Shown here: positions 2,895 through 19,905 of the stretch, piece by piece | How the letters are laid out: the number at the start of each line of letters is the position of its first letter | Position numbering within the stretch: the stretch's first letter is position 1 | Origin: an uncultured bacterium | GTDB lineage: Bacteria; Sysuimicrobiota; Sysuimicrobiia; Sysuimicrobiales; Sysuimicrobiaceae | Assembly: GCA_964437095.1 (NCBI GenBank) | Contig: CAYTFH010000002.1 | Span: forward strand, 14,627-78,626 | DNA length: 64,000 nt | Direction of reading: 5' to 3' | The notes under the pieces: model-generated | What the model saw: the letters and a program-made list of their open reading frames with translations, nothing else | What the model was told of the DNA's origin: nothing | Database searches by the model: none | Translations under genes and position numbers: made by a program

Positions 2895-4943
2895 GTGAGC
2901 GAGCTGGGTACGTTCGCCGCGGGCACGGCGCTGCTGGCCTGCGTCTACGCCGCGGTGGCGGCGGGGCTCGGCGCGCACCGCGGGAGCTCCCTGTGGGCGG
3001 AGAGCGGTTATCGGGCCCTGTGGGCGGCTGCAGGGTTGCTCACGGTGTGCGTGGCCGTGCTGGTCCACGCCCTGGTGACCCACGACTTCCGGGTGGCGTA
3101 CGTGGTCCGCAACAGCAGCCTGAGCACCCCGCTCCTGTACCGCCTCAGCGCCCTGTGGGGAGCCCAGGCGGGCTCTTTGCTGTTCTGGAGCTGGATGATG
3201 GCAGCGGTGGCCTGCCTGGCCCTGCGCGGCCAGCGGCGGGCCGACCCACAGCGGGCGGGGTGGGCCAACGCGGTGCTGGCCGCGGTGCTGGCCTTCTTCG
3301 TGTTCCTGGTGGTGGTGGAGCGTCCGTTCCGCACCTTGGCCTTCGCGCCCGCGGACGGCCGTGGGCTCATGCCCTTGCTGGAGGACCCCGGGATGGTCCT
3401 CCACCCGCCCCTCCTGTACTTGGGCCTCGTGGGGCTGAGCGTGCCGTACAGCTTCGCCATGGCAGCGTTGATCACGGGCCGGCTGGACGCGGGGTGGATT
3501 ACCGCCACCCGCACGTGGACGGTGGTGAGCTGGCTCAGCCTGGGGGCGGGGCTGGTGGTGGGCGGGTGGTGGGCGTACCGCACCCTGGGCTGGGGCGGGT
3601 ACTGGGGCTGGGACCCGGTGGAGAACGCGGCCCTGGTGCCCTGGCTGGTGTCCACCGCGTACCTGCACTCCGCGGTGGTTCAGGAACGGCGCGGGGCGTT
3701 CGCCGCGTGGAATCTAGCGCTGGTGGTCCTGAGCTTCGCCACCGCGGTCCTCGGCAGCTTCCTCACCCGCACGGGCCTGGTGGCGTCGGTGCACAGCTTC
3801 GCCCGTTCGGAGATCGGCCCGTACTTCCTCGGCTTCGTGGCGGTCCTGCTGGCGGGGTCTCTCGCGCTGGTGGTCTGGCGGTGGGACCAGCTGCGGGGCG
3901 GCCGCCCCGTGGAGGACCTGGTCTCCAGGGAAGGGGCCTTCCTGTTCAACAACGTGCTGTTCTTGAGCTTCGCGGGCGCGGTGCTGGTGGGGACCCTGTA
4001 TCCCTTGGGCGTGCAGGCGGCGGGAGGACCCGAGGTGTTCGTGGGCCCGCCCTACTACCACGCGGTGGCCGCGCCCTGGGGAGTGGCACTCCTGGTGCTC
4101 ATGGGCGTGGCGGTGCTGTTGCCGTGGCGCGGCGCGGGCACCCGCGCGCTGGTGCGCTTCCGGTACCCCGTGTTCTTCGCTCTGCTGGTGGCCTCGGCCG
4201 TGGGGGTGCTGTGGCGCCGGCCGGGGGTGGTGGCGGCCCTGGCGGCGGTGAGCTTCGCCCTGGCGGCCACGGTGCAGGCGTTCCACGGCGCGGGCAGGTC
4301 CGGCGCGCAGGCGGGCCGCGGGTACTGGCAAGGGCTGACGGACGCCTTTTGCGGACAGCGCCGGCGCTACGGCGGCTACGTGGTGCACCTCGGGGTGCTG
4401 GTCATGGCCGTGGGCATCGTGGGCAGCCACGCCTACGTGCAGGAGCGCGAGGTGACCGTGCGGCCGGGGCAGTCCTTCACCCTGAGCCGGTACGTGCTCA
4501 CCCACCGCGGGCTGCAGCTCGGTGCGACCGCGTTGGCGGACCTCACCCGGGCCTCCGTGGAGCTGCGGGAGGGCGACAAGGTGACCGTGCTGCAGCCCGT
4601 CCGCACGTTCTACCCGAGGTGGGGGCAGGTGGTGACCCGGCCCGCGGTGCGGTCCACCCTGCGGGACGACGTGTACGTGGTGCTGTGGGCGTTCAGGCCC
4701 GACGGCTCCGCGACCCTCCGGGCGTGGGTGAACCCCTTGGTGCGGTGGGTGTGGCTGGGCGCGTGGCTGGCCGGGCTCGGAGCGGTGGTGACCCTGTGGC
4801 CGCAGGGGCGGCGTGGGCGGATCCTGCCCACGGTGGGACGCTGGCCCGTGGACCGGAGGATCCCGCAGGACGGCCACCGGGAGCGCGCCGGCCGGGAAGT
4901 GCTGCGGGTGCTGCGGGGCCCGCGGGAGGGAAGGGTGCGTTGA
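2895..4943 (+). CDS. ccmF: cytochrome c-type biogenesis heme lyase CcmF (System I)
   Basis: 682-aa polytopic protein with VVRNSSLSTPLLYRLSALWGAQAGSLLFW (CcmF WWD-type region). GTG start 5 nt after GGAGG. Confidence 0.8.
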   Translation: MSELGTFAAGTALLACVYAAVAAGLGAHRGSSLWAESGYRALWAAAGLLTVCVAVLVHALVTHDFRVAYVVRNSSLSTPLLYRLSALWGAQAGSLLFWSWMMAAVACLALRGQRRADPQRAGWANAVLAAVLAFFVFLVVVERPFRTLAFAPADGRGLMPLLEDPGMVLHPPLLYLGLVGLSVPYSFAMAALITGRLDAGWITATRTWTVVSWLSLGAGLVVGGWWAYRTLGWGGYWGWDPVENAALVPWLVSTAYLHSAVVQERRGAFAAWNLALVVLSFATAVLGSFLTRTGLVASVHSFARSEIGPYFLGFVAVLLAGSLALVVWRWDQLRGGRPVEDLVSREGAFLFNNVLFLSFAGAVLVGTLYPLGVQAAGGPEVFVGPPYYHAVAAPWGVALLVLMGVAVLLPWRGAGTRALVRFRYPVFFALLVASAVGVLWRRPGVVAALAAVSFALAATVQAFHGAGRSGAQAGRGYWQGLTDAFCGQRRRYGGYVVHLGVLVMAVGIVGSHAYVQEREVTVRPGQSFTLSRYVLTHRGLQLGATALADLTRASVELREGDKVTVLQPVRTFYPRWGQVVTRPAVRSTLRDDVYVVLWAFRPDGSATLRAWVNPLVRWVWLGAWLAGLGAVVTLWPQGRRGRILPTVGRWPVDRRIPQDGHRERAGREVLRVLRGPREGRVR

Positions 4944-11103: not shown

Positions 11104-12537
11104 ATGAGCACGAGGGAGCGTTCCGCGCGGTTGGAGATCCATCCCGGAGCCGTGGTCCACGCCCCCGAGGGCGTGGCGGGCCGCGTAGCGGAGGTGGTGG
11201 TGAGCCCGCGGGAGCGCCGGGTGGTGGCCCTGGTGGTGGAGCTCGGCTCCGGCCGACCCGTGGTGGTGCCGGCGGAATCGGTGGAGGACGCCACGGAGGA
11301 GGCCGTGCGGGTGCGGGCCTCCGTGGCGGAGCTGGAGCGGCTGCCGGCCTGGCAGGCGGAGGCGCACGCGCCCGCGGCGCTGTCGTGGCCTGGGTGGAGG
11401 GCCCTGCGGCAGGGGGGTGCGTGGCTGCCCCTGCCGGGGTCGTTGCGGCGCATGGAGGGGCTGCAGCGGCAACTTTCGGGTCAAGCCGTAGTACGGCCGG
11501 AGGAGCCGTTCGCGATCATCCGGCGCGGGCAGCGGGTGGTGGCCAGCGACGGCGCCATCGGCCGCGTGGACCAAGTACTGGTGGACGCCGCCACGGGCCA
11601 GGTGAAGCACCTGGTGGTGCGTCAGGGGTTGCTGTTCTCCCGAGACGTGGCCGTCCCCGCGGACTGGGTGAGCACCATCGAGGACGGGGTGGTGGTGCTG
11701 GAGGCTTCCCGGGACGCGGTGGCGCGCCTGCCCGTGTGCCGGCCCGACGACGAGCTGGAGCGGGACGTGGAGGAAGCCCTGCAGCGGGAGGAGCTGTTGC
11801 GGGTCCTGGCGGTGCCCGTGCGGCCGGAGGTGGTCGACGGGGTGGTGCGGCTGCGGGGCCACGTGCACAGCCGGGCCCTGGCCGCGCGGGCGGAGGAGGT
11901 GGCGCGGTCGGTGCCGGGTGTGGTGGAGGTCTGCAACGAGCTGGTGGTGGACCACGAGCTGCTGCAACAGGTGGTGGCCTCCGTGCAGGCGGATCCGGCC
12001 ACCCGGCACCTGGCGGGATACTCCCTGCGGGTGCGGGACGGGGTGGTGGAGCTTACGGGCAGTGTGCCTTCCCTGGAGGCGGCGCGGGCCCTGGAGCGGG
12101 CCATCGCCCGGGTGCCCGGGGTGCGGGGGATCGCCAACCACATGACGGGCCTGGACGTCCCGCCCACGTGGCGGCAGGTGGTGCAGCCGGAAGTGGGCCG
12201 ACCAGTGTACGCCACGGACCAGGAGCTGGGCCGGGTGGAGGCGGTGGTGGTGGACCCCGACAACCGCCGGGTGCAGGCCGTGGTGGTGGCGGGCGAGTTC
12301 CCGGACGCGGGTGTGTTGCCCTTCGCCGCGGGACCCCTGTGGGAGCGCCGGGTGGTGATCCCCTTGGAGGACGTGGAGCGCGTAACCCCTGGGGGCGTGT
12401 TCCTGCGGGTTCACGCGGGTGAGGCCGCGGAGCGGCCGGACCTGCGCGAGGAGGACTACCCGCCCGCGCCGCCTTCATGGGTCCCGCCCTTCCCCTACGG
12501 GTCCGGGCAGGTCCGGTGGCCCGCGAAGACCGGATAG
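11104..12537 (+). CDS. stress protein with three PRC-barrel and two BON domains
   Basis: Repeated xVxAxDGxxGRVxxVxVDxxxxRVxxLVV PRC-barrel motifs (three copies) and BON-like VRLRGHVHSRALAARAEEVARSVPGVVEVCNELVV segments. Confidence 0.6.
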   Translation: MSTRERSARLEIHPGAVVHAPEGVAGRVAEVVVSPRERRVVALVVELGSGRPVVVPAESVEDATEEAVRVRASVAELERLPAWQAEAHAPAALSWPGWRALRQGGAWLPLPGSLRRMEGLQRQLSGQAVVRPEEPFAIIRRGQRVVASDGAIGRVDQVLVDAATGQVKHLVVRQGLLFSRDVAVPADWVSTIEDGVVVLEASRDAVARLPVCRPDDELERDVEEALQREELLRVLAVPVRPEVVDGVVRLRGHVHSRALAARAEEVARSVPGVVEVCNELVVDHELLQQVVASVQADPATRHLAGYSLRVRDGVVELTGSVPSLEAARALERAIARVPGVRGIANHMTGLDVPPTWRQVVQPEVGRPVYATDQELGRVEAVVVDPDNRRVQAVVVAGEFPDAGVLPFAAGPLWERRVVIPLEDVERVTPGGVFLRVHAGEAAERPDLREEDYPPAPPSWVPPFPYGSGQVRWPAKTG

Positions 12538-12543
12538 ATGCAC

Positions 12544-12584
12544 TGTCAAGAGACTTGACAATACCATTGTCAACCACGTAGCCT
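12544..12584 (+). promoter_or_regulatory. hspR-dnaK operon promoter with overlapping HAIR-like inverted repeats (putative HspR operator)
   Basis: TGTCAAG-aga-CTTGACA-atacca-TTGTCAA: CTTGACA-N7-TGTCAAC mirrors the HAIR consensus CTTGAGT-N7-ACTCAAG. -35 TTGACA (12555-12560), 18-nt spacer, -10-like TAGCCT (12579-12584). Confidence 0.6.
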
Positions 12585-12616
12585 GGGGTCGGAAGCTGGC
12601 AGCGAGGGATTGAGCC

Positions 12617-12937
12617 GTGGCGGAGCGGACCTACCGGCGGGACGAGGTGCCGGTGTACGTGATCAGCGTGGCCGCGGAGCTGGCGGGGGTGCACCCCCGC
12701 ACCCTCCGGATCTACGAGGCCAAGGGGCTGATCCGGCCCGCCCGGCGGAAGCACATCCGGCTGTTCAGCGAGCGGGACGTGCAGCGGGTGCGGCTGATCC
12801 AGTACCTGACCCAGGAGGTGGGGCTGAACCTGGCGGGGGTGCGGCTGTTCCTGGAGATCCAGGAACGCCACGAGGAGGTGGCGCAGTGGTTGCTGGAGCT
12901 TTGCGACACCCAAACGGAAAGGAGGGAGCGGCGATGA
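12617..12937 (+). CDS. hspR: MerR-family heat-shock transcriptional repressor HspR-like
   Basis: [52 protein letters not shown] is a MerR HTH. The gene is first in the dnaK operon and an HAIR-like dyad lies upstream. Confidence 0.8.
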
Positions 12938-13386
12938 GCATCCTGCGGTGGGACCCCTTCGAGGAGCTGCGGGAGATGCAGCGGTCCTTGGACCGCCTGT
13001 TCGACGAGTTGTCGGGCCGGCGGCCGCTGCGGCGTCGGGAGGCGCGGGAGCCCGTGGTGTGGGAGCCCGCGGTGGAGGTGTACGAGACGGACCAGGAGGT
13101 GGTGGTCCGGGCGGAGCTGCCCGGCGTGGACCCTAAGAACGTGAACGTGACCGTGCAGGACAACACCGTGACCATCGAGGCGGAGGCCAAGGAGGAGCAG
13201 GAGGAGCGGGGTCGCACCTACCTGCGCCGGGAGCTGCGCTACGGCCAGTTCTGCCGGAGCCTGACGCTGCCCGCGGAGGTGCGGGCGGACGCGGCCAAGG
13301 CCACCTACCGCAACGGTGTGCTGGAGCTGCGCGTGCCCAAGAGCGAGCGCGCGAAGCCCAAGCAGGTGAAGGTGGAGGTGAGCTGA
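12934..13386 (+). CDS. Hsp20/alpha-crystallin family small heat shock protein
   Basis: [25 protein letters not shown]...[32 protein letters not shown]...LELRVPK. ATG overlaps the hspR stop (ATGA) and follows GGAGGGAG. Confidence 0.9.
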
Positions 13387-13393
13387 CCAAGCA

Positions 13394-13426
13394 CGCGGGG
13401 CGGCCCCGCCGCGGGGCCGCCCCGCG
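13394..13426 (+). other. perfect 31-33 nt GC palindrome (stable hairpin) between hsp20 and dnaK, no U tract
   Basis: GCGGGGCGGCCCCGC-C-GCGGGGCCGCCCCGC is exactly self-complementary (stem of about 15 bp) and is followed by GAGGGAGGGAG (the dnaK RBS). Confidence 0.7.
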
Positions 13427-13440
13427 AGGGAGGGAGTGAC

Positions 13441-15324
13441 ATGGGCAGGGTTGTCGGCATCGATCTGGGTACCACCAACTCGGTCATCGCGGCCATGGTG
13501 GGTGGAGAGCCCGTGGTGATCCCCAACCGGGAGGGCAGCCGCCTCACCCCGTCCGTGGTGGCCTTCACCAAGACCGGGGAGCGCCTGGTGGGGCAGATGG
13601 CCAAGCGGCAGGCCATCCTCAACCCCGAGAACACCATCTACTCCATCAAGCGCTTCATGGGGCGCCGCTTCCACGAGGTGGAGACGGAGCGGAAGATGGT
13701 GCCCTACAAGGTGGTGGAGGGCCAGCACGGCATGGCGGTGGTGGACATCCCCGCCGCGGGCCGCACCTTCACCCCTGAGGAGATCTCCGCCATGATCCTC
13801 CAGAAGCTGAAGGAGGACGCGGAGGCTTACCTGGGGGAGAAGGTGGAGGCGGCGGTGATCACCGTGCCCGCGTACTTCAACGACGCCCAGCGCACCGCCA
13901 CCAAGAACGCGGGGGAGATCGCGGGGCTCAAGGTGTTGCGGATCATCAACGAGCCCACCGCCGCCTGCCTGGCCTACGGGCTGGACAAGAAGGGCTCGGA
14001 GACGGTGCTGGTGTGGGACCTGGGAGGCGGGACCTTCGACGTCTCCGTCCTGGAGATCGGGGAAGGGGTGTTCCAGGTGCGGGCCACCGCGGGGGACACC
14101 CACCTGGGCGGGGACGACTGGGACGAGCGCATCGTGAACTGGCTGGCGGAGGAGTTCCGCAAGCAGCACGGCATCGACCTCCGCCAGGACCGGCAGGCCC
14201 TGCAGCGGCTGCGGGAGGCCGCGGAGCGGGCCAAGATCGAGCTCAGCGCCATGGTGCAGACCACCATCAACCTGCCCTTCATCACCGCGGACGCCACGGG
14301 GCCCAAGCACCTGGACATGGTGCTCACTCGGGCCAAGTTCGAGGAGCTCACCGCGGACCTGGTGGAGCGGTGCATCGGGCCCTTCCGTCAGGCCCTGCAG
14401 GACGCCAAGCTCAGCGAGCGGGACCTGCACGAGGTCATCCTGGTGGGCGGCAGCACCCGCATGCCCATGATCCAGGAGCTGGTGCGCCGGCTCACGGGGA
14501 AGGAGCCCAACAAGGAGGTCCACCCGGACGAGGTGGTGGCCGTGGGCGCGGCCATCCAGGCGGGGGTGCTGGCGGGTGAGGTGCGGGACGTGGTGCTCCT
14601 GGACGTCACCCCCCTGTCCCTGGGCATCGAGACCCTGGGCGGGGTCATGACGGTCCTCATCCCGCGGAACACCACCATCCCCACCCGGAAGAGCGAGACC
14701 TTCACCACCGCGGAGGACGGCCAGACCCAGGTGGAGATCCACGTGCTGCAGGGCGAGCGGCCCATGGCCCGGGACAACCGCACCCTGGGCCGGTTCATCC
14801 TGGACGGCATCCCGCCCGCGCCGCGGGGGGTGCCCAAGATCGAGGTCACCTTCGACATCGACGCCAACGGCATCCTGGCGGTGTCCGCCAAGGACCTGGC
14901 CACGGGCCGCGAGCAGTCCATCAAGATCACCGGCACCTCCACCCTCACCCGGGAGGAGGTGGAGCGGATGATCAAGGAGGCGGAGGCCCACGCGGAGGAG
15001 GACCGCCGCAAGCGCGAAGAGGCGGAGATCCTCAACCGCGGGGACAGCCTGGCCTACCAGACGGAGCGGCTGCTGCGGGACCAGGCCAAGGGCGTGTCGG
15101 AAGCCGAGCGGCGGGAGCTGGAGCAGAAGGTGGCGGAGCTCCGGCAGGCGGTGCAGGCCCGGGACGTCCAGCGGGTGCGGCAGCTGTCGGAGGAGGTGCA
15201 GCGCCTCACCTACAAGCTCAGTGAGCTGCTGTACCGCGGTGCGGCCAGTGGGGCCAGCACCGGCGGCGGTCAGAGCAAGGGGGACGGGGAGGTCATCGAC
15301 GCGGACTACAAGCCCAGCGACTAG
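13441..15324 (+). CDS. dnaK: molecular chaperone DnaK (Hsp70)
   Basis: [25 protein letters not shown] and [12 protein letters not shown] Hsp70 signatures; 627 aa. Confidence 0.97.
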
Positions 15325-15342
15325 CTGGGGAGGTCACGGGCC

Positions 15343-15948
15343 ATGTGGGAGGAGCGTCCGGAGCGGGAAGGCACCGAGCCGGAAGCCGCAGGGCAGGCCA
15401 CTCCCGCGGAGGCCGAGGCTCCGGAGCAGGCCGCCGCGGAGCCGCAGCCCGTGGTGGTGACCCAGGAGGAGCTGGCGGCCCTCCGGGAGGAGGTGGAGCG
15501 CTACCGCCAGGAGGCGGAGCGCAACTGGCAGCAGTTCCTGCACGCGGCCGCGGACCTGGAGAACTACAAGAAGGCCGCGGCCCGCATGCAGCAGGACGCG
15601 GTGGACCGCACCCGGCGGCAGATGCTGTTGGTGCTCCTCGGGGCGGTGGACGACCTGGAGCGGGCCATCGCCTACGCGGAGCGCGGGGCGGAGCACGAGG
15701 CCGTGGCGGGGATCCTGGAGGGTCTGCGCATCACCCACCGGTCCCTGCTGGACCAGCTCCGGGCCCTGGGCGTGGAGCGCATGGAGGTGGCGGGCGAGCG
15801 GTTCGACCCCGCCCACCACGAGGCGGTGGAGGTGACCCCCGCGGAGGAGGCGGGGGTGGAGCCGGGCACGGTGCTGGAGGCCGTGCAGCCCGGCTACGTC
15901 CTGGACGGTCGGGTCCTGCGCCCCGCACGGGTGCGGGTGGCCCAGTGA
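15343..15948 (+). CDS. grpE: nucleotide exchange factor GrpE
   Basis: Coiled-coil N-terminus followed by the GrpE C-terminal domain (FDPAHHEAVEV...VLEAVQPGYVLDGRVLRPARVRV). Confidence 0.9.
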   Translation: MWEERPEREGTEPEAAGQATPAEAEAPEQAAAEPQPVVVTQEELAALREEVERYRQEAERNWQQFLHAAADLENYKKAAARMQQDAVDRTRRQMLLVLLGAVDDLERAIAYAERGAEHEAVAGILEGLRITHRSLLDQLRALGVERMEVAGERFDPAHHEAVEVTPAEEAGVEPGTVLEAVQPGYVLDGRVLRPARVRVAQ

Positions 15949-15975
15949 CGGTGCGGGCGGGCCGGTGAGGGAGCC

Positions 15976-16875
15976 ATGGAGTTCAAGGACTACTACCGGA
16001 TCCTGGGGGTGGATCGCAAGGCCGACAGCAAGGCCATCGGGGAGGCTTTCCGTCGGCTCGCCCGGCAGTACCACCCGGACGTGAACAAGGACCCCCAGGC
16101 CGCGGAGAAGTTCAAGGAGATCAACGAGGCCTACCAGGTCCTCAGCGACCCGGAAAAGCGCGCCCGCTACGACCAGATGCTGGAGCTGCGGGAGCGCGGG
16201 ATGCCCTGGGAGCAGGTGTTCACCCGACCGGGGACGGGCCGCACCGCGGAGTGGACGTGGTTCGGGGAGCCCCAGGATTTGTTCGGCGGGTTCTCCGACT
16301 TCTTCCGCCGGTTCTTCGCAGACCTGGGAGGCCCCTTCGAGGCGGAAGGGCTGTGGGGCCAGCAGCCCCTCACCGCCACCGCGGAGATCAGCCTGGAGGA
16401 GGCCTTCCGCGGCACCGAGCGGGAGCTGGTGGTGCGCAACGGGTTCCCGCGGCGCGTAACGGTGCGGATCCCACCCGGGGTCCACACAGGCCAGAAGGTG
16501 CGGGTGCGGGGTGCGGGCGGGGACGTGTACGTGGAAGTCCGGGTGCAGCCCCACCCGGTGTTCTCCCGGGAGGGCGACGACCTGGTGTGCGAGATCCCCA
16601 TCTGCCTCACGGAGGCCCTGCTGGGCGCGGAGATCGAGGTCCCCACCCTGGAGGGCAAGGTGAAGGTGCGGGTCCCGCCCGAGACCCAGCAGGGGCAGGT
16701 GTTGAGGCTGCGGGGCCTGGGGATGCCGAAGCTGCGGGGCTCCGGGCGCGGGGACCTGCTGGTCCGGCTGCGGGTGGTGCTGCCGCGGGGGTTGAGCGTG
16801 GAGGAGCGGCGGTTGGTGGAGCAGCTGGCCAAGCTCCGGCGCGAGAACCCGCGGGCTGCCATGGGGCTCAAGTAA
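15976..16875 (+). CDS. DnaJ-class co-chaperone without zinc finger (CbpA-like)
   Basis: [35 protein letters not shown]...[20 protein letters not shown] domain plus C-terminal DnaJ substrate-binding domains. No CxxCxGxG repeats. Confidence 0.85.
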
Positions 16876-16898
16876 GGCGTGGAATGGGGAGGAGACCG

Positions 16899-19505
16899 AT
16901 GCGGTGGGACAAGCTGACGGAGAAGTCGCAGGAAGCCCTGGCGCGGGCCCAGGAGCTGGCCCGGGAGCGCGGCCACCCGCAGGTGGACACCGAGCACCTG
17001 CTGGCGGCCCTCCTGGACCAGGCGGACGGGGTGGTCCCGCAGGTGCTGCAGAAGGCGGGGGCGTCCGTGGCCCGCATCCGCCAGCAGGTGGGCCAGGCCC
17101 TGGCGGCCCTGCCCCAGGTGCACGGTGCGGCGGAGCTGTACGTGGCCCCGGGCCTGCGGCGTGTGTGGGACGCGGCGGAGCAGGAAGCCCAGCGGATGCA
17201 GGACGAGTACACCAGCACGGAGCACTTCCTCCTGGCCATGGCCGACGCCCCCCAGACGGGCGCCGGCCGGGTGCTGCAGCAGAACGGGGTCACCAAGGAG
17301 GCGGTGCTGCGGGCCCTGTCGGAGGTCCGGGGTTGGGTGCGGGTCACCGACCCCCGGCCGGAGGCCAAGTACCAGGTCCTGGAGCGCTACGGCCGGGACC
17401 TCACGGAGCTGGCGCGGGCCGGCAAGCTGGACCCCGTGATCGGGCGGGACGAGGAGATCCGGCGGGTGATCCACGTCCTCAGCCGCCGCACCAAGAACAA
17501 CCCCGTGCTCATCGGCGAGCCGGGGGTGGGCAAGACGGCCATCGTGGAGGGGCTGGCGCAGCGGATCGTGCGCGGGGACGTGCCCGAGCAGCTGAAGCAC
17601 AAGCGGGTCTTCCAGCTGGACATGGGGGCGTTGGTGGCGGGGACCAAGTACCGGGGCGAGTTCGAGGAGCGGCTGAAGGCGGTCCTCAAGGAGATCGCGG
17701 ACAGCCACGGGGAGATCATCCTGTTCATCGACGAGATCCACACCGTGGTGGGCGCGGGGGCCGCGGAGGGGGCCGCCATGGACGCCGCCAACATCCTCAA
17801 GCCCATGCTGGCCCGGGGGGAGCTGCACTGCATCGGCGCCACCACCCTGGACGAGTACCGCAAGCACATCGAGAAGGACCCGGCCCTGGAGCGCCGGTTC
17901 CAGCCCGTGTACGTGGGCGAGCCGTCGGTGGAGGATACCATCTCCATCCTCCGGGGCCTCAAGGAGAAGTACGAGGTCCACCACGGGGTGCGGATCACGG
18001 ACGCCGCGGTGATCGCCGCCGCCACCCTGTCCAGCCGCTACATCAGCGACCGCTTCCTGCCCGACAAGGCCATCGACCTCATCGACGAGGCCGCGGCCAA
18101 GCTCCGCATGGAGATCGACAGCAAACCCGCGGAGCTGGACGAGATCGACCGCCGCATCATGCAGCTGGAGATCGAACGCGAGGCGCTGCGCAGGGAGACC
18201 GATCCCGCCGCCCAGGAGCGGCTGGCGAAGCTGGAGCAGGAGCTGGAGCGGCTGCTCCGGGACAGCGAGGCCCTGCGGCAGCGGTGGGACCGGGAGAAGC
18301 AGATCGTCCAGCGGATCCGGCAGATCAAGGCGGACATCGACCGCACCAAGGTGGAGCTGGAGCAGGCGGAGCGGGTGGCGGACCTGGAGCGGGCGGCCCG
18401 GTTGCGGTACGGGACCCTGCCCGAGCTGCACAAGCAGCTGGGCGCGGCCGAGGCGGAGCTGCGGGCCCTGGGCCCGCACCGCCTGCTGAAGGAGGAGGTG
18501 GACGCGGAGGACATCGCGGAGGTGGTGAGCAAGTGGACCGGCATCCCGGTGACCAAGCTGCTGGAGGGCGAGATGCAGAAGCTCCTGCAGCTGGAGGACC
18601 GGCTCCACCAGCGGGTGGTGGGGCAGGACGAGGCGGTCCAGGCGGTGGCGGACGCCATCCGCCGGGCTCGGGCGGGGCTGAAGGACCCCAAGCGGCCCAT
18701 CGGCGCCTTCCTGTTCCTGGGCCCCACGGGGGTGGGCAAGACGGAGCTGGCCCGCGCCCTGGCGGAGGTGCTGTTCGACTCCGAGGACGCCATGGTGCGC
18801 ATCGACATGTCCGAGTACCAGGAGAAGCACACGGTCTCCCGGCTGGTGGGCGCGCCTCCCGGCTACGTGGGCTACGAGGAGGGCGGGCAGCTCACGGAGG
18901 CCGTGCGGCGCCGGCCCTACCGGGTGGTGCTGTTCGATGAGGTGGAGAAGGCGCACCCGGACGTGCTCAACGTGCTCCTGCAGGTGATGGAGGACGGGCG
19001 GCTCACGGACGCCCAGGGCCGCACCGTGGACTTCAAGAACACCGTCCTCATCCTCACCAGCAACGTGGGCAGCCAGCACCTCCAGCACCTGGACCCCGAG
19101 GACCCCGCGGCCTTCGAGCTGGCCAAGGTGTACGTGCTGGACGAGCTGCGCCGGACCTTCCGGCCGGAGTTCCTCAACCGCCTGGACGAGATCATCGTGT
19201 TCCGGCCCCTGTCCCGGGCCCAGCTGGAGCGCATCGTAGACCTGCAGCTGGCGTACCTGGAGCGGCGGCTGGCGGACCTGAAGATCCGGGTGGAGGTGAC
19301 CCCGGAGGCGCGGGAGTGGGTGGCCCGGGAGGGCTACAGCCCCGACTACGGTGCGCGGCCCCTGCGGCGCCTGATCCAGCGGACGGTGGAGAACACGCTG
19401 AGCCGCATGGTCCTGCGGGGCGAGCTGCGGGAAGGAGACGTGGCCGTGGTCACGGTGCGCGGCGGGGCTATCGCCGTGGAACGCCAACAGCCCGTGCCCG
19501 CGTGA
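16899..19505 (+). CDS. clpB: ATP-dependent chaperone ClpB
   Basis: Two AAA+ modules ([16 protein letters not shown]) with a long middle coiled-coil domain; 868 aa. ATG follows GGGGAGGAG. Confidence 0.95.
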
Positions 19506-19518
19506 GCCCCGGGGCTGC

Positions 19519-19905
19519 TCAGCCGTACCCGAGCTCCTCCAGGCGGTCCTCGTCCAGGCCGAAGTAGTGGCCCAGCTCGTGCAGCACGGTCCTGCGGATC
19601 TCCTCCCGCAGGCCGTCCTCGCTGTCGTAGGCGTCCTCCAGGGGCCCCTGGAAGAGGGTGATGCGGTCCGGCAGCAGGGGAGGCTCGATGCCGCGCTCCG
19701 GCAGGGGTGTGCCCTCGTACAGGCCGAACAGCACCCCGTCCTCGGGCAGGCCCACGGACGCCAGCTGTTCGGGGGTGGGCCAGTCCTCCACCACCACGTG
19801 CACGTTCTGGAGGGCGCGGCGGAACGGCTCGGGCACCTCCGCCAGGGCCTCTTCCACCAGTCGCCGGAAGCGCCTGCGGCTGAGGCGCACGGTGACCCCC
19901 TTCAC
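19519..19905 (-). CDS. small zinc metallopeptidase-like protein (minimal MMP-like family)
   Basis: HELGHYFG HExxH motif in a 128-aa protein. Confidence 0.55.
   Translation of the reverse strand: MKGVTVRLSRRRFRRLVEEALAEVPEPFRRALQNVHVVVEDWPTPEQLASVGLPEDGVLFGLYEGTPLPERGIEPPLLPDRITLFQGPLEDAYDSEDGLREEIRRTVLHELGHYFGLDEDRLEELGYG

Follow-up and report, generated by a model that had tools for sequence, protein, structure and literature searches.

Heat-shock repressors of the HspR type have been characterised in several bacteria, and all of them act as repressors (PMC6032397, PMC2687793). In Streptomyces coelicolor the operator is the HspR-associated inverted repeat (HAIR), with the consensus TTGAGY-N7-ACTCAA, and the targets of HspR comprise dnaK, clpB and lon in Streptomyces, hsp70, clpB and acr2 in Mycobacterium tuberculosis, and hsp20, ftsH, dnaK, lonB and clpB in Deinococcus (PMC2687793). 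Several HAIR copies are present at dnaK of S. coelicolor, and at cbpA of Helicobacter pylori multiple HspR dimers bind cooperatively, with non-consensus flanks being needed for full occupancy (PMC6102357). At its own promoter the H. pylori protein overlaps the -35 and -10 elements and represses sterically; in S. coelicolor and M. tuberculosis DnaK acts as co-repressor, and the H. pylori HspR is modulated by CbpA (PMC6032397). Here we describe an hspR-led heat-shock operon in a stretch of 64,000 nucleotides (64 kb, hereafter the window) from an uncultured bacterium of the Sysuimicrobiota. It is likely, in our judgement, that this operon is transcribed as one autoregulated heat-shock unit in an uncultured thermophile, and that HspR would repress it at an inverted repeat, C-D, whose left arm contains the -35 hexamer.

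The locus resembles the actinobacterial dnaK operons in that a MerR-family repressor, autoregulated there and predicted to be so here, is encoded together with dnaK, in that the promoter carries more than one copy of a 7-N7-7 inverted repeat (about 1.5 in the window), and in that clpB, lon and hsp20 (acr2) are part of the regulon (PMC2687793, PMC6102357). It differs from them in its gene order, hspR being first here and last there, and in having hsp20 and clpB joined to the operon. The inner two bases of the half-site are CA/TG in the window and GT/AC in the actinobacteria, and the window half-site therefore equals the -35 consensus. The window HspR is also shorter, with 106 residues against 166 in Actinomyces.

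In H. pylori, HspR is co-transcribed with a zinc-finger-less J-protein in the cbpA-hspR-orf operon and lies over the -35 and -10 of its own promoter (bound there, predicted here), and its operator consists of a central HAIR-like repeat and auxiliary flanks that are cooperatively occupied (PMC6102357, PMC6032397). That operon, however, is without dnaK, grpE and clpB, and its operator is about 70-75 bp long with poorly conserved arms; moreover, HrcA co-regulates other targets in H. pylori, whereas a search of the window for CIRCE, the HrcA operator, was empty. The HspR targets of Deinococcus radiodurans include hsp20, dnaK, grpE, dnaJ and clpB, as in the window operon, plus lon and ftsH (PMC2687793, PMC6888292). 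There they occupy dispersed loci, each with its own HAIR, while the window has one operon and one operator. Thermus thermophilus likewise has a zinc-finger-less J-protein, and its clpB travels with dnaK, in the order dnaK-grpE-dnaJ-dafA-clpB. The window operon differs in having no dafA-sized gene (the dnaJ-clpB gap is 23 bp) and in being led by hspR-hsp20.

Gene order and operator of the hspR operon

Six co-directional genes were found between positions 12617 and 19505, in the order hspR-hsp20-dnaK-grpE-dnaJ-clpB, the dnaJ being one without zinc finger. The open reading frame (ORF) listing and the profile searches gave this order, which had been proposed in an earlier reading of the same DNA from its letters alone (the sequence-only reading). 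The genes are as follows.

12617-12937, + strand: hspR, GTG start, 106 residues, MerR-family repressor (Pfam MerR_1), with the ribosome-binding site GAGGGA at 12604-12609
12934-13386, + strand: hsp20, small heat-shock protein (sHsp) of 150 residues, its start overlapping the hspR stop (ATGA)
13441-15324, + strand: dnaK, 627 residues (NF001413, 996 bits)
15343-15948, + strand: grpE, 201 residues, found by profile searches
15976-16875, + strand: J-protein of type II (class B), with a DnaJ domain and a DnaJ_C domain, zinc finger absent
16899-19505, + strand: clpB, 868 residues from MRWDKL, with an alternative ATG at 16884 (TIGR03346, 1367 bits); last gene

The ATGA coupling of hspR and hsp20 that had been claimed was confirmed, since the hsp20 start at 12934 lies inside the end of hspR at 12937, and the placement of clpB inside the operon was also correct, the gene following dnaJ after 23 bp. 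The near-zero gaps of the same reading were found only at the hspR/hsp20 junction; the other gaps, downstream of hsp20, are short but measure 54, 18, 27 and 23 bp in order. The gene 3' of clpB encodes a zincin-like peptidase (19519-19905) and is convergent, and the transcription unit would therefore end at clpB.

The elements of the operator and promoter lie immediately upstream of hspR. The half-sites are lettered A to D in their order on the DNA.

12530-12536, + strand: half-site A, decayed (CCGGATA, 4/7 against CTTGACA), overlapping the TAG stop (12535-12537) that ends the upstream PRC/BON gene
12544-12550, + strand: half-site B, TGTCAAG, 3 bp (AGA) upstream of half-site C
12554-12560, + strand: half-site C, CTTGACA, including the -35 hexamer TTGACA at 12555-12560
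12568-12574, + strand: half-site D, TGTCAAC, in the promoter spacer, separated from C by ATACCAT
12579-12584, + strand: inferred -10 element, TAGCCT, 18 bp after the -35, with 3/6 agreement to TATAAT

Half-sites C and D together form a 7-N7-7 inverted repeat, CTTGACA-N7-TGTCAAC, in which 13 of 14 positions match. When the window was searched for CTTGACA-N7-TGTCAAG with at most one mismatch, the repeat was obtained once in 64 kb and in none of 100 dinucleotide-preserving shuffles, although the bare 7-mer CTTGACA showed no enrichment (3 matches, 2.85 expected). Half-sites B and C form a perfect 7-3-7 palindrome, unique in the window, and A and B taken as a repeat (12530-12550) match with three mismatches. 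Cores of the form TGWCA (W = A or T; TGACA/TGTCA) recur every 12 bp in B, C and D. It was also observed that B-C reads TGTCA-N7-TGACA (12544-12560), which formally fits the TnrA/GlnR box TGTNA-N7-TNACA.

Compared with HAIR, the C-D repeat has the same geometry (7-bp arms and a 7-bp gap) and the same promoter location, but not the same arm sequence: the arms are CTTGACA/TGTCAAG in place of CTTGAGT/ACTCAAG (minimally TTGAGY-N7-ACTCAA), with 5 of 7 positions identical in each. The sequence-only reading had described exactly this combination, a HAIR-like N7 spacing with a distinct half-site that overlaps the -35 TTGACA and the spacer, and both parts of the description held, the overlap at the positions listed above and the repeat as an element strongly conserved upstream of hspR operons elsewhere. 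Its multi-copy operator held only in part. Three alternating half-sites are literally present, but they make up one full repeat (C-D) and an orphan B, and we would count the window operator as about 1.5 copies, not three.

The operator and the gene order in related loci

The search for HspR homologues gave 7994 hits. To place the locus among its relatives, a profile of 30 homologues was used, which yielded 80 loci (1.02 Mb) from species-representative genomes, and the gene content of these loci was determined by tblastn with the six window proteins. The repeat was visible again and again when the 140 bp upstream of hspR were viewed in all loci. A search for CTTGACA-N7-TGTCAAG with at most two mismatches gave 65 matches, against 1 in the reversed-sequence control, and 60 of the 65 were located upstream of the hsp20/hspR cluster, at most 350 bp from its first gene, and were spread over 59 of the 80 loci. 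It is clear from these figures that the repeat is conserved, in sequence and in position, in many genomes. The 60 related sites gave the operator consensus CTTGACAAYRNYATTGTCARG, which effectively has 8-bp arms and a 5-bp centre; the left arm is nearly invariant in the consensus, and half-site C is invariant across the 60 sites.

The 12 closest loci (L005-L016), aligned on the -35, revealed a four-half-site array, A-N7-B-N3-C-N7-D, in which A and C read CTTGACA, B and D read TGTCAAG, and C is the -35. Half-sites B and C are kept at 5-7/7 in all 12, with B at a fixed distance of 3 bp from C (B is 7/7 in the window and 6/7 in L005). Half-site A is intact (5-7/7) in L007, L008 and L010-L016, for example 7/7 in L007 and L014 and 6/7 in L012, but decayed in the window (4/7) and in L005 (1/7). 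Half-site D was found at 6/7 in the window and L012 and at 5/7 in L005 and L015, and is decayed in the other near loci. A TAnnnT hexamer follows TTGACA after 17-18 bp in 11 of the 12 loci, the exception being the closest one, L005, with TACTGG. At 56 more distant sites the mean agreement was 2.2/7 at position A and 3.05/7 at position B, and the extra upstream repeat is therefore clade-specific. As to the upstream neighbour, the gene at 11104-12537 encodes an OsmY-like protein of 477 residues that contains two PRC-barrel and two BON domains; it stops 6 bp short of half-site B, and in L005 a homologous C-terminus likewise terminates just upstream of the operator.

Core promoter elements are overlapped by the operator throughout, but its register relative to the promoter was found to vary by clade: it covers the -35 plus the spacer, upstream sequence plus the -35, or the -10. 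In an Armatimonadota group (L017, L021, L023, L042, L048) two direct TTGACA copies occur about 75-90 bp upstream of hspR; the upstream copy would be the -35 element, the inverted repeat covers the -10, and the operator is shifted relative to the promoter. The Chloroflexota have a single repeat, which extends over the -35 and the spacer up to the -10. The spacer length is 17-18 bp for the window and the loci nearest to it, and 18-19 bp for the more distant L017-L048 group.

The closest named genome is a metagenome-assembled genome (MAG) of Ca. Tepidifontimicrobium thermophilum, whose HspR, DnaK and ClpB are 94%, 97% and 93% identical to those of the window; Ca. Tepidifontimicrobium belongs to the hot-spring phylum Sysuimicrobiota/CSP1-3, of which enrichment cultures have been published (PMC11604079). 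An identical HspR protein was found only in the Logan assemblies SRR11582144-148. According to the tblastn results, the identical order hspR-hsp20-dnaK-grpE-dnaJ-clpB is present in L005-L007, L010, L012, L013, L015, L017, L021, L023, L042 and L048, from Sysuimicrobiota, 'Armatimonadota', ANGP1 and unclassified MAGs, and three further loci (L009, L011, L016) have this order without hsp20. The Chloroflexota loci (mostly Limnocylindria; L018, L027 and most of L018-L084) are HspR-led with the order (hsp20)-hspR-lon-dnaJ-clpB, dnaK and grpE being outside. In the two of these that were inspected (L018 and L027), the 2.5-3 kb gap after hspR corresponds to a Lon protease gene, and Lon matches 3' of hspR were also obtained in several metagenome contigs. 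The HspR-first order thus recurs across phyla and is not peculiar to the window genome; the layout is widespread, and the TTGACA-type half-site is likewise common to several phyla. The genes involved have all been recognised as HspR targets in other bacteria (PMC2687793). Most of a regulon that is dispersed there would here be collapsed into one operon behind one operator.

A scan of metagenome contigs was also carried out with the exact palindrome. It returned 120 loci (L085-L204), mainly low-GC marine contigs with no link to heat shock, and only the high-GC subset was informative; among the 17 contigs with at least 60% GC, 11 have hsp20, hspR, lon or dnaK adjoining the site. One of the 11, L094, has the order dnaK-dnaJ-hspR-clpB, with hspR as the third gene (4114-4341), and its operator (678-698), a perfect TTGACA-type site, precedes dnaK over TTGACA...TATATT. 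Since the operator stands at the operon start though hspR is only third, the motif follows the operon promoter and not the hspR gene. In the low-GC marine contigs the palindrome, CTTGACAA-N5-TTGTCAAG, was found in 46 of the 120 loci ahead of a conserved ORF, about 323 residues long ('MSRIRLNQELRNKV...'; L087, L100 and 44 others among L085-L204), at a distance of about 41 bp. The ORF does not resemble heat-shock proteins and could come from a phage; here the palindrome seems to be put to another use.

The repressor, the J-protein and other features

The identity of the regulator as an HspR-type repressor, which the sequence-only reading had claimed, was supported by profile, identity and structure comparisons. 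The HspR model NF047375 was the best of the NCBIfam models (92.5 bits), well above ZntR (40.6), MerR (36), CueR (32), TnrA (26.6) and SoxR (26), and Pfam MerR_1 matched with 65 bits; the protein is of the HspR type and not of the CueR, SoxR or ZntR type. Compared with the HspR proteins of dnaK-grpE-dnaJ-hspR operons, the DNA-binding domain (76-80 residues) is 51% identical to that of Nonomuraea and 56% identical to that of Actinomyces, with E about 1e-21. The protein is furthermore encoded with DnaK-system and ClpB genes, and the same linkage was found in the related loci.

The AlphaFold2 model of HspR (mean pLDDT 80) has a MerR-like winged helix-turn-helix and one long helix. Its predicted elements are a beta strand at residues 13-15, helices at 16-23 and 27-35, a wing at 42-51, and helices at 52-68 and 72-105, with residues 27-35 (PRTLRIYEA) as the recognition helix. 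When the model was searched with Foldseek, the nearest solved structures were NmlR, GlnR, TnrA and MtaN, and no HspR structure was found in the PDB. Foldseek also listed E. coli CbpM in complex with the CbpA J-domain (3ucs), with E about 1e-3, a lead which suggests that HspR could plausibly, on structural grounds, contact the J-protein directly.

For comparison with canonical systems, Actinomyces oris (annotated) and Nonomuraea (clpB after hspR), both with the order dnaK-grpE-dnaJ-hspR, were taken from a plasmid collection, in which the other matches were mostly unrelated MerR paralogues. Two canonical repeats were found upstream of dnaK in each actinobacterial locus, namely GTTGAGT-N7-GCTCAAG and GTTGAGT-N7-ACTCAAC in L205, and GTTGAGC-N7-ACTCAAG and CCTGAGT-N7-ACTCAAC in L206, and no TTGACA-type site was found upstream of dnaK in either. 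The recognition helix reads HPQTLRQYD in the actinobacteria against HPRTLRIYE in the window and in most of the about 90 alignable TTGACA-type loci (77 in exact register). This association of helix and operator spans two clades and is a correlation, not proof of a determinant. The HspR of L094 has an intermediate helix, HPQTLRLYE, although its operator is a perfect TTGACA-type site. Arg28 is therefore not an absolute requirement, and the notion that Arg28 alone (HPR against HPQ) switches GT to CA is weakened. Residues 32 and 34 co-vary with the half-site better than residue 28 does, over very few independent lineages. L094 thus offers a natural intermediate for finding the residues that set half-site specificity.

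The J-protein of the operon had been described in the sequence-only reading as a zinc-finger-less, CbpA-like DnaJ. The first attribute was retained, since Pfam gave no zinc-finger match and the protein has only 2 Cys, but the second was not: the protein scored 178 bits with the CbpA equivalog NF007618, whose cutoff is 403. Its best profile is NF010892 (zinc-finger-less DnaJ; 248 bits against 392), and its closest solved relative is the type II DnaJ of T. thermophilus (DnaJ2; PDB 4j80/6psi; E 4e-55), which is a fully functional type II DnaJ (PMC3727329). It is best called the operon's DnaJ rather than CbpA. Another potential partner of DnaK, a protein of 265 residues (769-1566) with an N-terminal J domain only (Pfam DnaJ, 49.5 bits), is encoded 11 kb upstream of the operon.

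One further element was located within the operon.

13395-13425, + strand: GC-rich hairpin with a perfect 14-bp stem and a 3-nt loop, in the hsp20-dnaK gap, abutting the dnaK ribosome-binding site and without a U-tract

The free energy of this hairpin is -43.4 kcal/mol (z -3.9), and hairpins unrelated to it in sequence are present in the corresponding gap of L005, L006, L012, L013, L021, L023 and L048. It may serve as a partial terminator or as a transcript stabiliser, uncoupling the levels of hspR-hsp20 from those of dnaK-clpB. Rfam gave no match over the whole window, hence no known RNA thermometer or leader, and no tRNA genes were found in the window.

Proposed repression at the hspR promoter and its alternatives

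From these features we infer a promoter, the binding of HspR to it, repression and a chaperone feedback, in the following way. A sigma-A-type promoter, TTGACA-18 bp-TAGCCT, would drive hspR-hsp20-dnaK-grpE-dnaJ-clpB, and a dimer of HspR, the product of the first gene, would bind C-D with its left arm on the -35 hexamer and its right arm in the spacer. The bound protein would compete with RNA polymerase for the -35 and so repress its own operon. Half-site B would be the remainder of a second tandem repeat, A-B, which is intact in sister lineages, and would probably still help a second, weakly bound dimer to dock. Upon heat shock, unfolded proteins would draw off the operon's DnaK and/or J-protein and repression would be relieved, as for the HspR of Streptomyces and Mycobacterium; it would return once free chaperone accumulates. 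The feedback step is modelled on DnaK in S. coelicolor and M. tuberculosis and on CbpA in H. pylori. Steric repression is favoured because the operator overlaps the core promoter at differing registers and because the spacers are 17-18 bp.

Several observations weigh against this proposal. The -10 is weak, and a simple sigma-70/terminator scanner called no promoter at the operator site, because TAGCCT agrees with TATAAT at only 3/6 positions; the promoter assignment rests on conservation among the relatives, not on the scanner. The half-site departs from the defining HAIR at 2/7 positions, and no canonical HAIR was obtained in the 64-kb window with up to three mismatches. The HspR score of 92.5 bits falls below the curated equivalog cutoff of NCBIfam (105). 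In addition, the sequence of half-site B is compatible both with a functional site and with a relic, and the view is confined to 64 kb, so that any further regulon members, or a second regulator such as HrcA, would lie outside.

The strongest competing explanation is that only C-D binds HspR, B and the remnant A being non-functional leftovers of an ancestral tandem operator. We regard this as a serious contender, though with somewhat less than an even chance. It agrees with the decay of A to 4/7 in the window and 1/7 in its closest relative (L005), with the low averages of A and B at the 56 distant sites (2.2 and 3.0 of 7), and with the Chloroflexota operons, which manage with one repeat. Half-site B, on the other hand, is 7/7 here and 6/7 in L005 despite its lost partner, it is kept at 5-7/7 in all 12 nearest loci, and the H. 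pylori protein requires non-consensus flanks for full cooperative occupancy (PMC6102357). Given the HAIR copies of S. coelicolor and the cooperative binding in H. pylori, a helper role for half-site B is reasonable by analogy, but unproven.

Activation in the manner of MerR, by which HspR on the spacer would distort the DNA upon heat shock, seems improbable to us. The predicted structure of HspR does have the MerR fold, and the dyad lies between the -35 and the -10, as at MerR-family activated promoters. Those promoters, however, have overlong spacers of 19-20 bp and a centred dyad, whereas the window spacer is 18 bp and the spacers of the relatives are not uniformly overlong (17-18 bp, 19 in a few distant loci), and the dyad is off-centre and covers the -35 itself. 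The operator register moreover varies between clades, which a distortion mechanism could not tolerate, and the characterised HspRs are all repressors (PMC6032397, PMC2687793).

A still smaller chance, and a very slight one, is given to a different regulator, for example a TnrA/GlnR-like protein, that binds B-C, hspR being the first gene by coincidence. B-C does formally fit the TnrA/GlnR box, and GlnR and TnrA are among the solved structures closest to the window HspR. The protein nevertheless does not match the TnrA/GlnR profile (TnrA model 26.6 bits against a cutoff of 140, and against 92.5 bits for the HspR model), nitrogen-metabolism genes are not involved, and across phyla the motif accompanies heat-shock operons that contain hspR, even where C-D stands alone. 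Since the C-D type is the only one in the Chloroflexota and the TnrA model does not fit the protein, the fit of B-C to the box is taken as a by-product of the array. Least credible of all is chance, that is, a strong -35 hexamer with fortuitous palindromes of no regulatory meaning, for which the count of the bare 7-mer (3 found, 2.85 expected) could be cited, but which is effectively refuted by the unique repeat in the window against 0/100 shuffles and by its conserved position in 59/80 related loci against 1 reversed-sequence match.

If these HspR proteins form a specificity class of their own, repressor and polymerase would compete for the same six bases, those of the sigma-A -35 TTGACA, and the alternating TGWCA cores at 12-bp intervals would let the dimer site slide by one register during evolution. 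The occupied site would then be A-B in Sysuimicrobium and C-D in Tepidifontimicrobium, B and C being kept throughout, and the whole Hsp20/DnaK/ClpB disaggregation machinery would be under one switch. We put forward, tentatively and with more doubt than belief, that these proteins may constitute a distinct HspR specificity class, marked by the helix HPRTLRIYE, a half-site identical to the -35, a sliding operator and one switch for Hsp20, DnaK and ClpB; its range would be the Chloroflexota, Armatimonadota, Sysuimicrobiota/CSP1-3, ANGP1, and some Bacillota and Acidimicrobiia.

The new findings are modest. They comprise a conserved HAIR half-site variant coinciding with the -35, a matching variant of the recognition helix, and a one-operon layout found in several little-studied phyla. 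The full-text literature, curated regulon databases not being covered, gave no description of TTGACA-type HAIR or of HspR-first operons. The one-operon layout would put the sHsp-DnaK-ClpB genes of the window under a single promoter, copies elsewhere being possible, and it would be convenient for studies of thermal adaptation in hot-spring enrichments. The two helices with their half-sites, HPQTLRQYD with TTGAGT and HPRTLRIYE with TTGACA, make a natural pair of repressor and operator specificities for asking how MerR-type helices read DNA, and the consensus CTTGACAAYRNYATTGTCARG should be usable for predicting the heat-shock regulons of these phyla. The general understanding of how HspR systems work is left unchanged, and the HspR/HAIR circuit, characterised in Actinobacteria, Deinococcus and Epsilonproteobacteria, would be extended to several large, mostly uncultured phyla.

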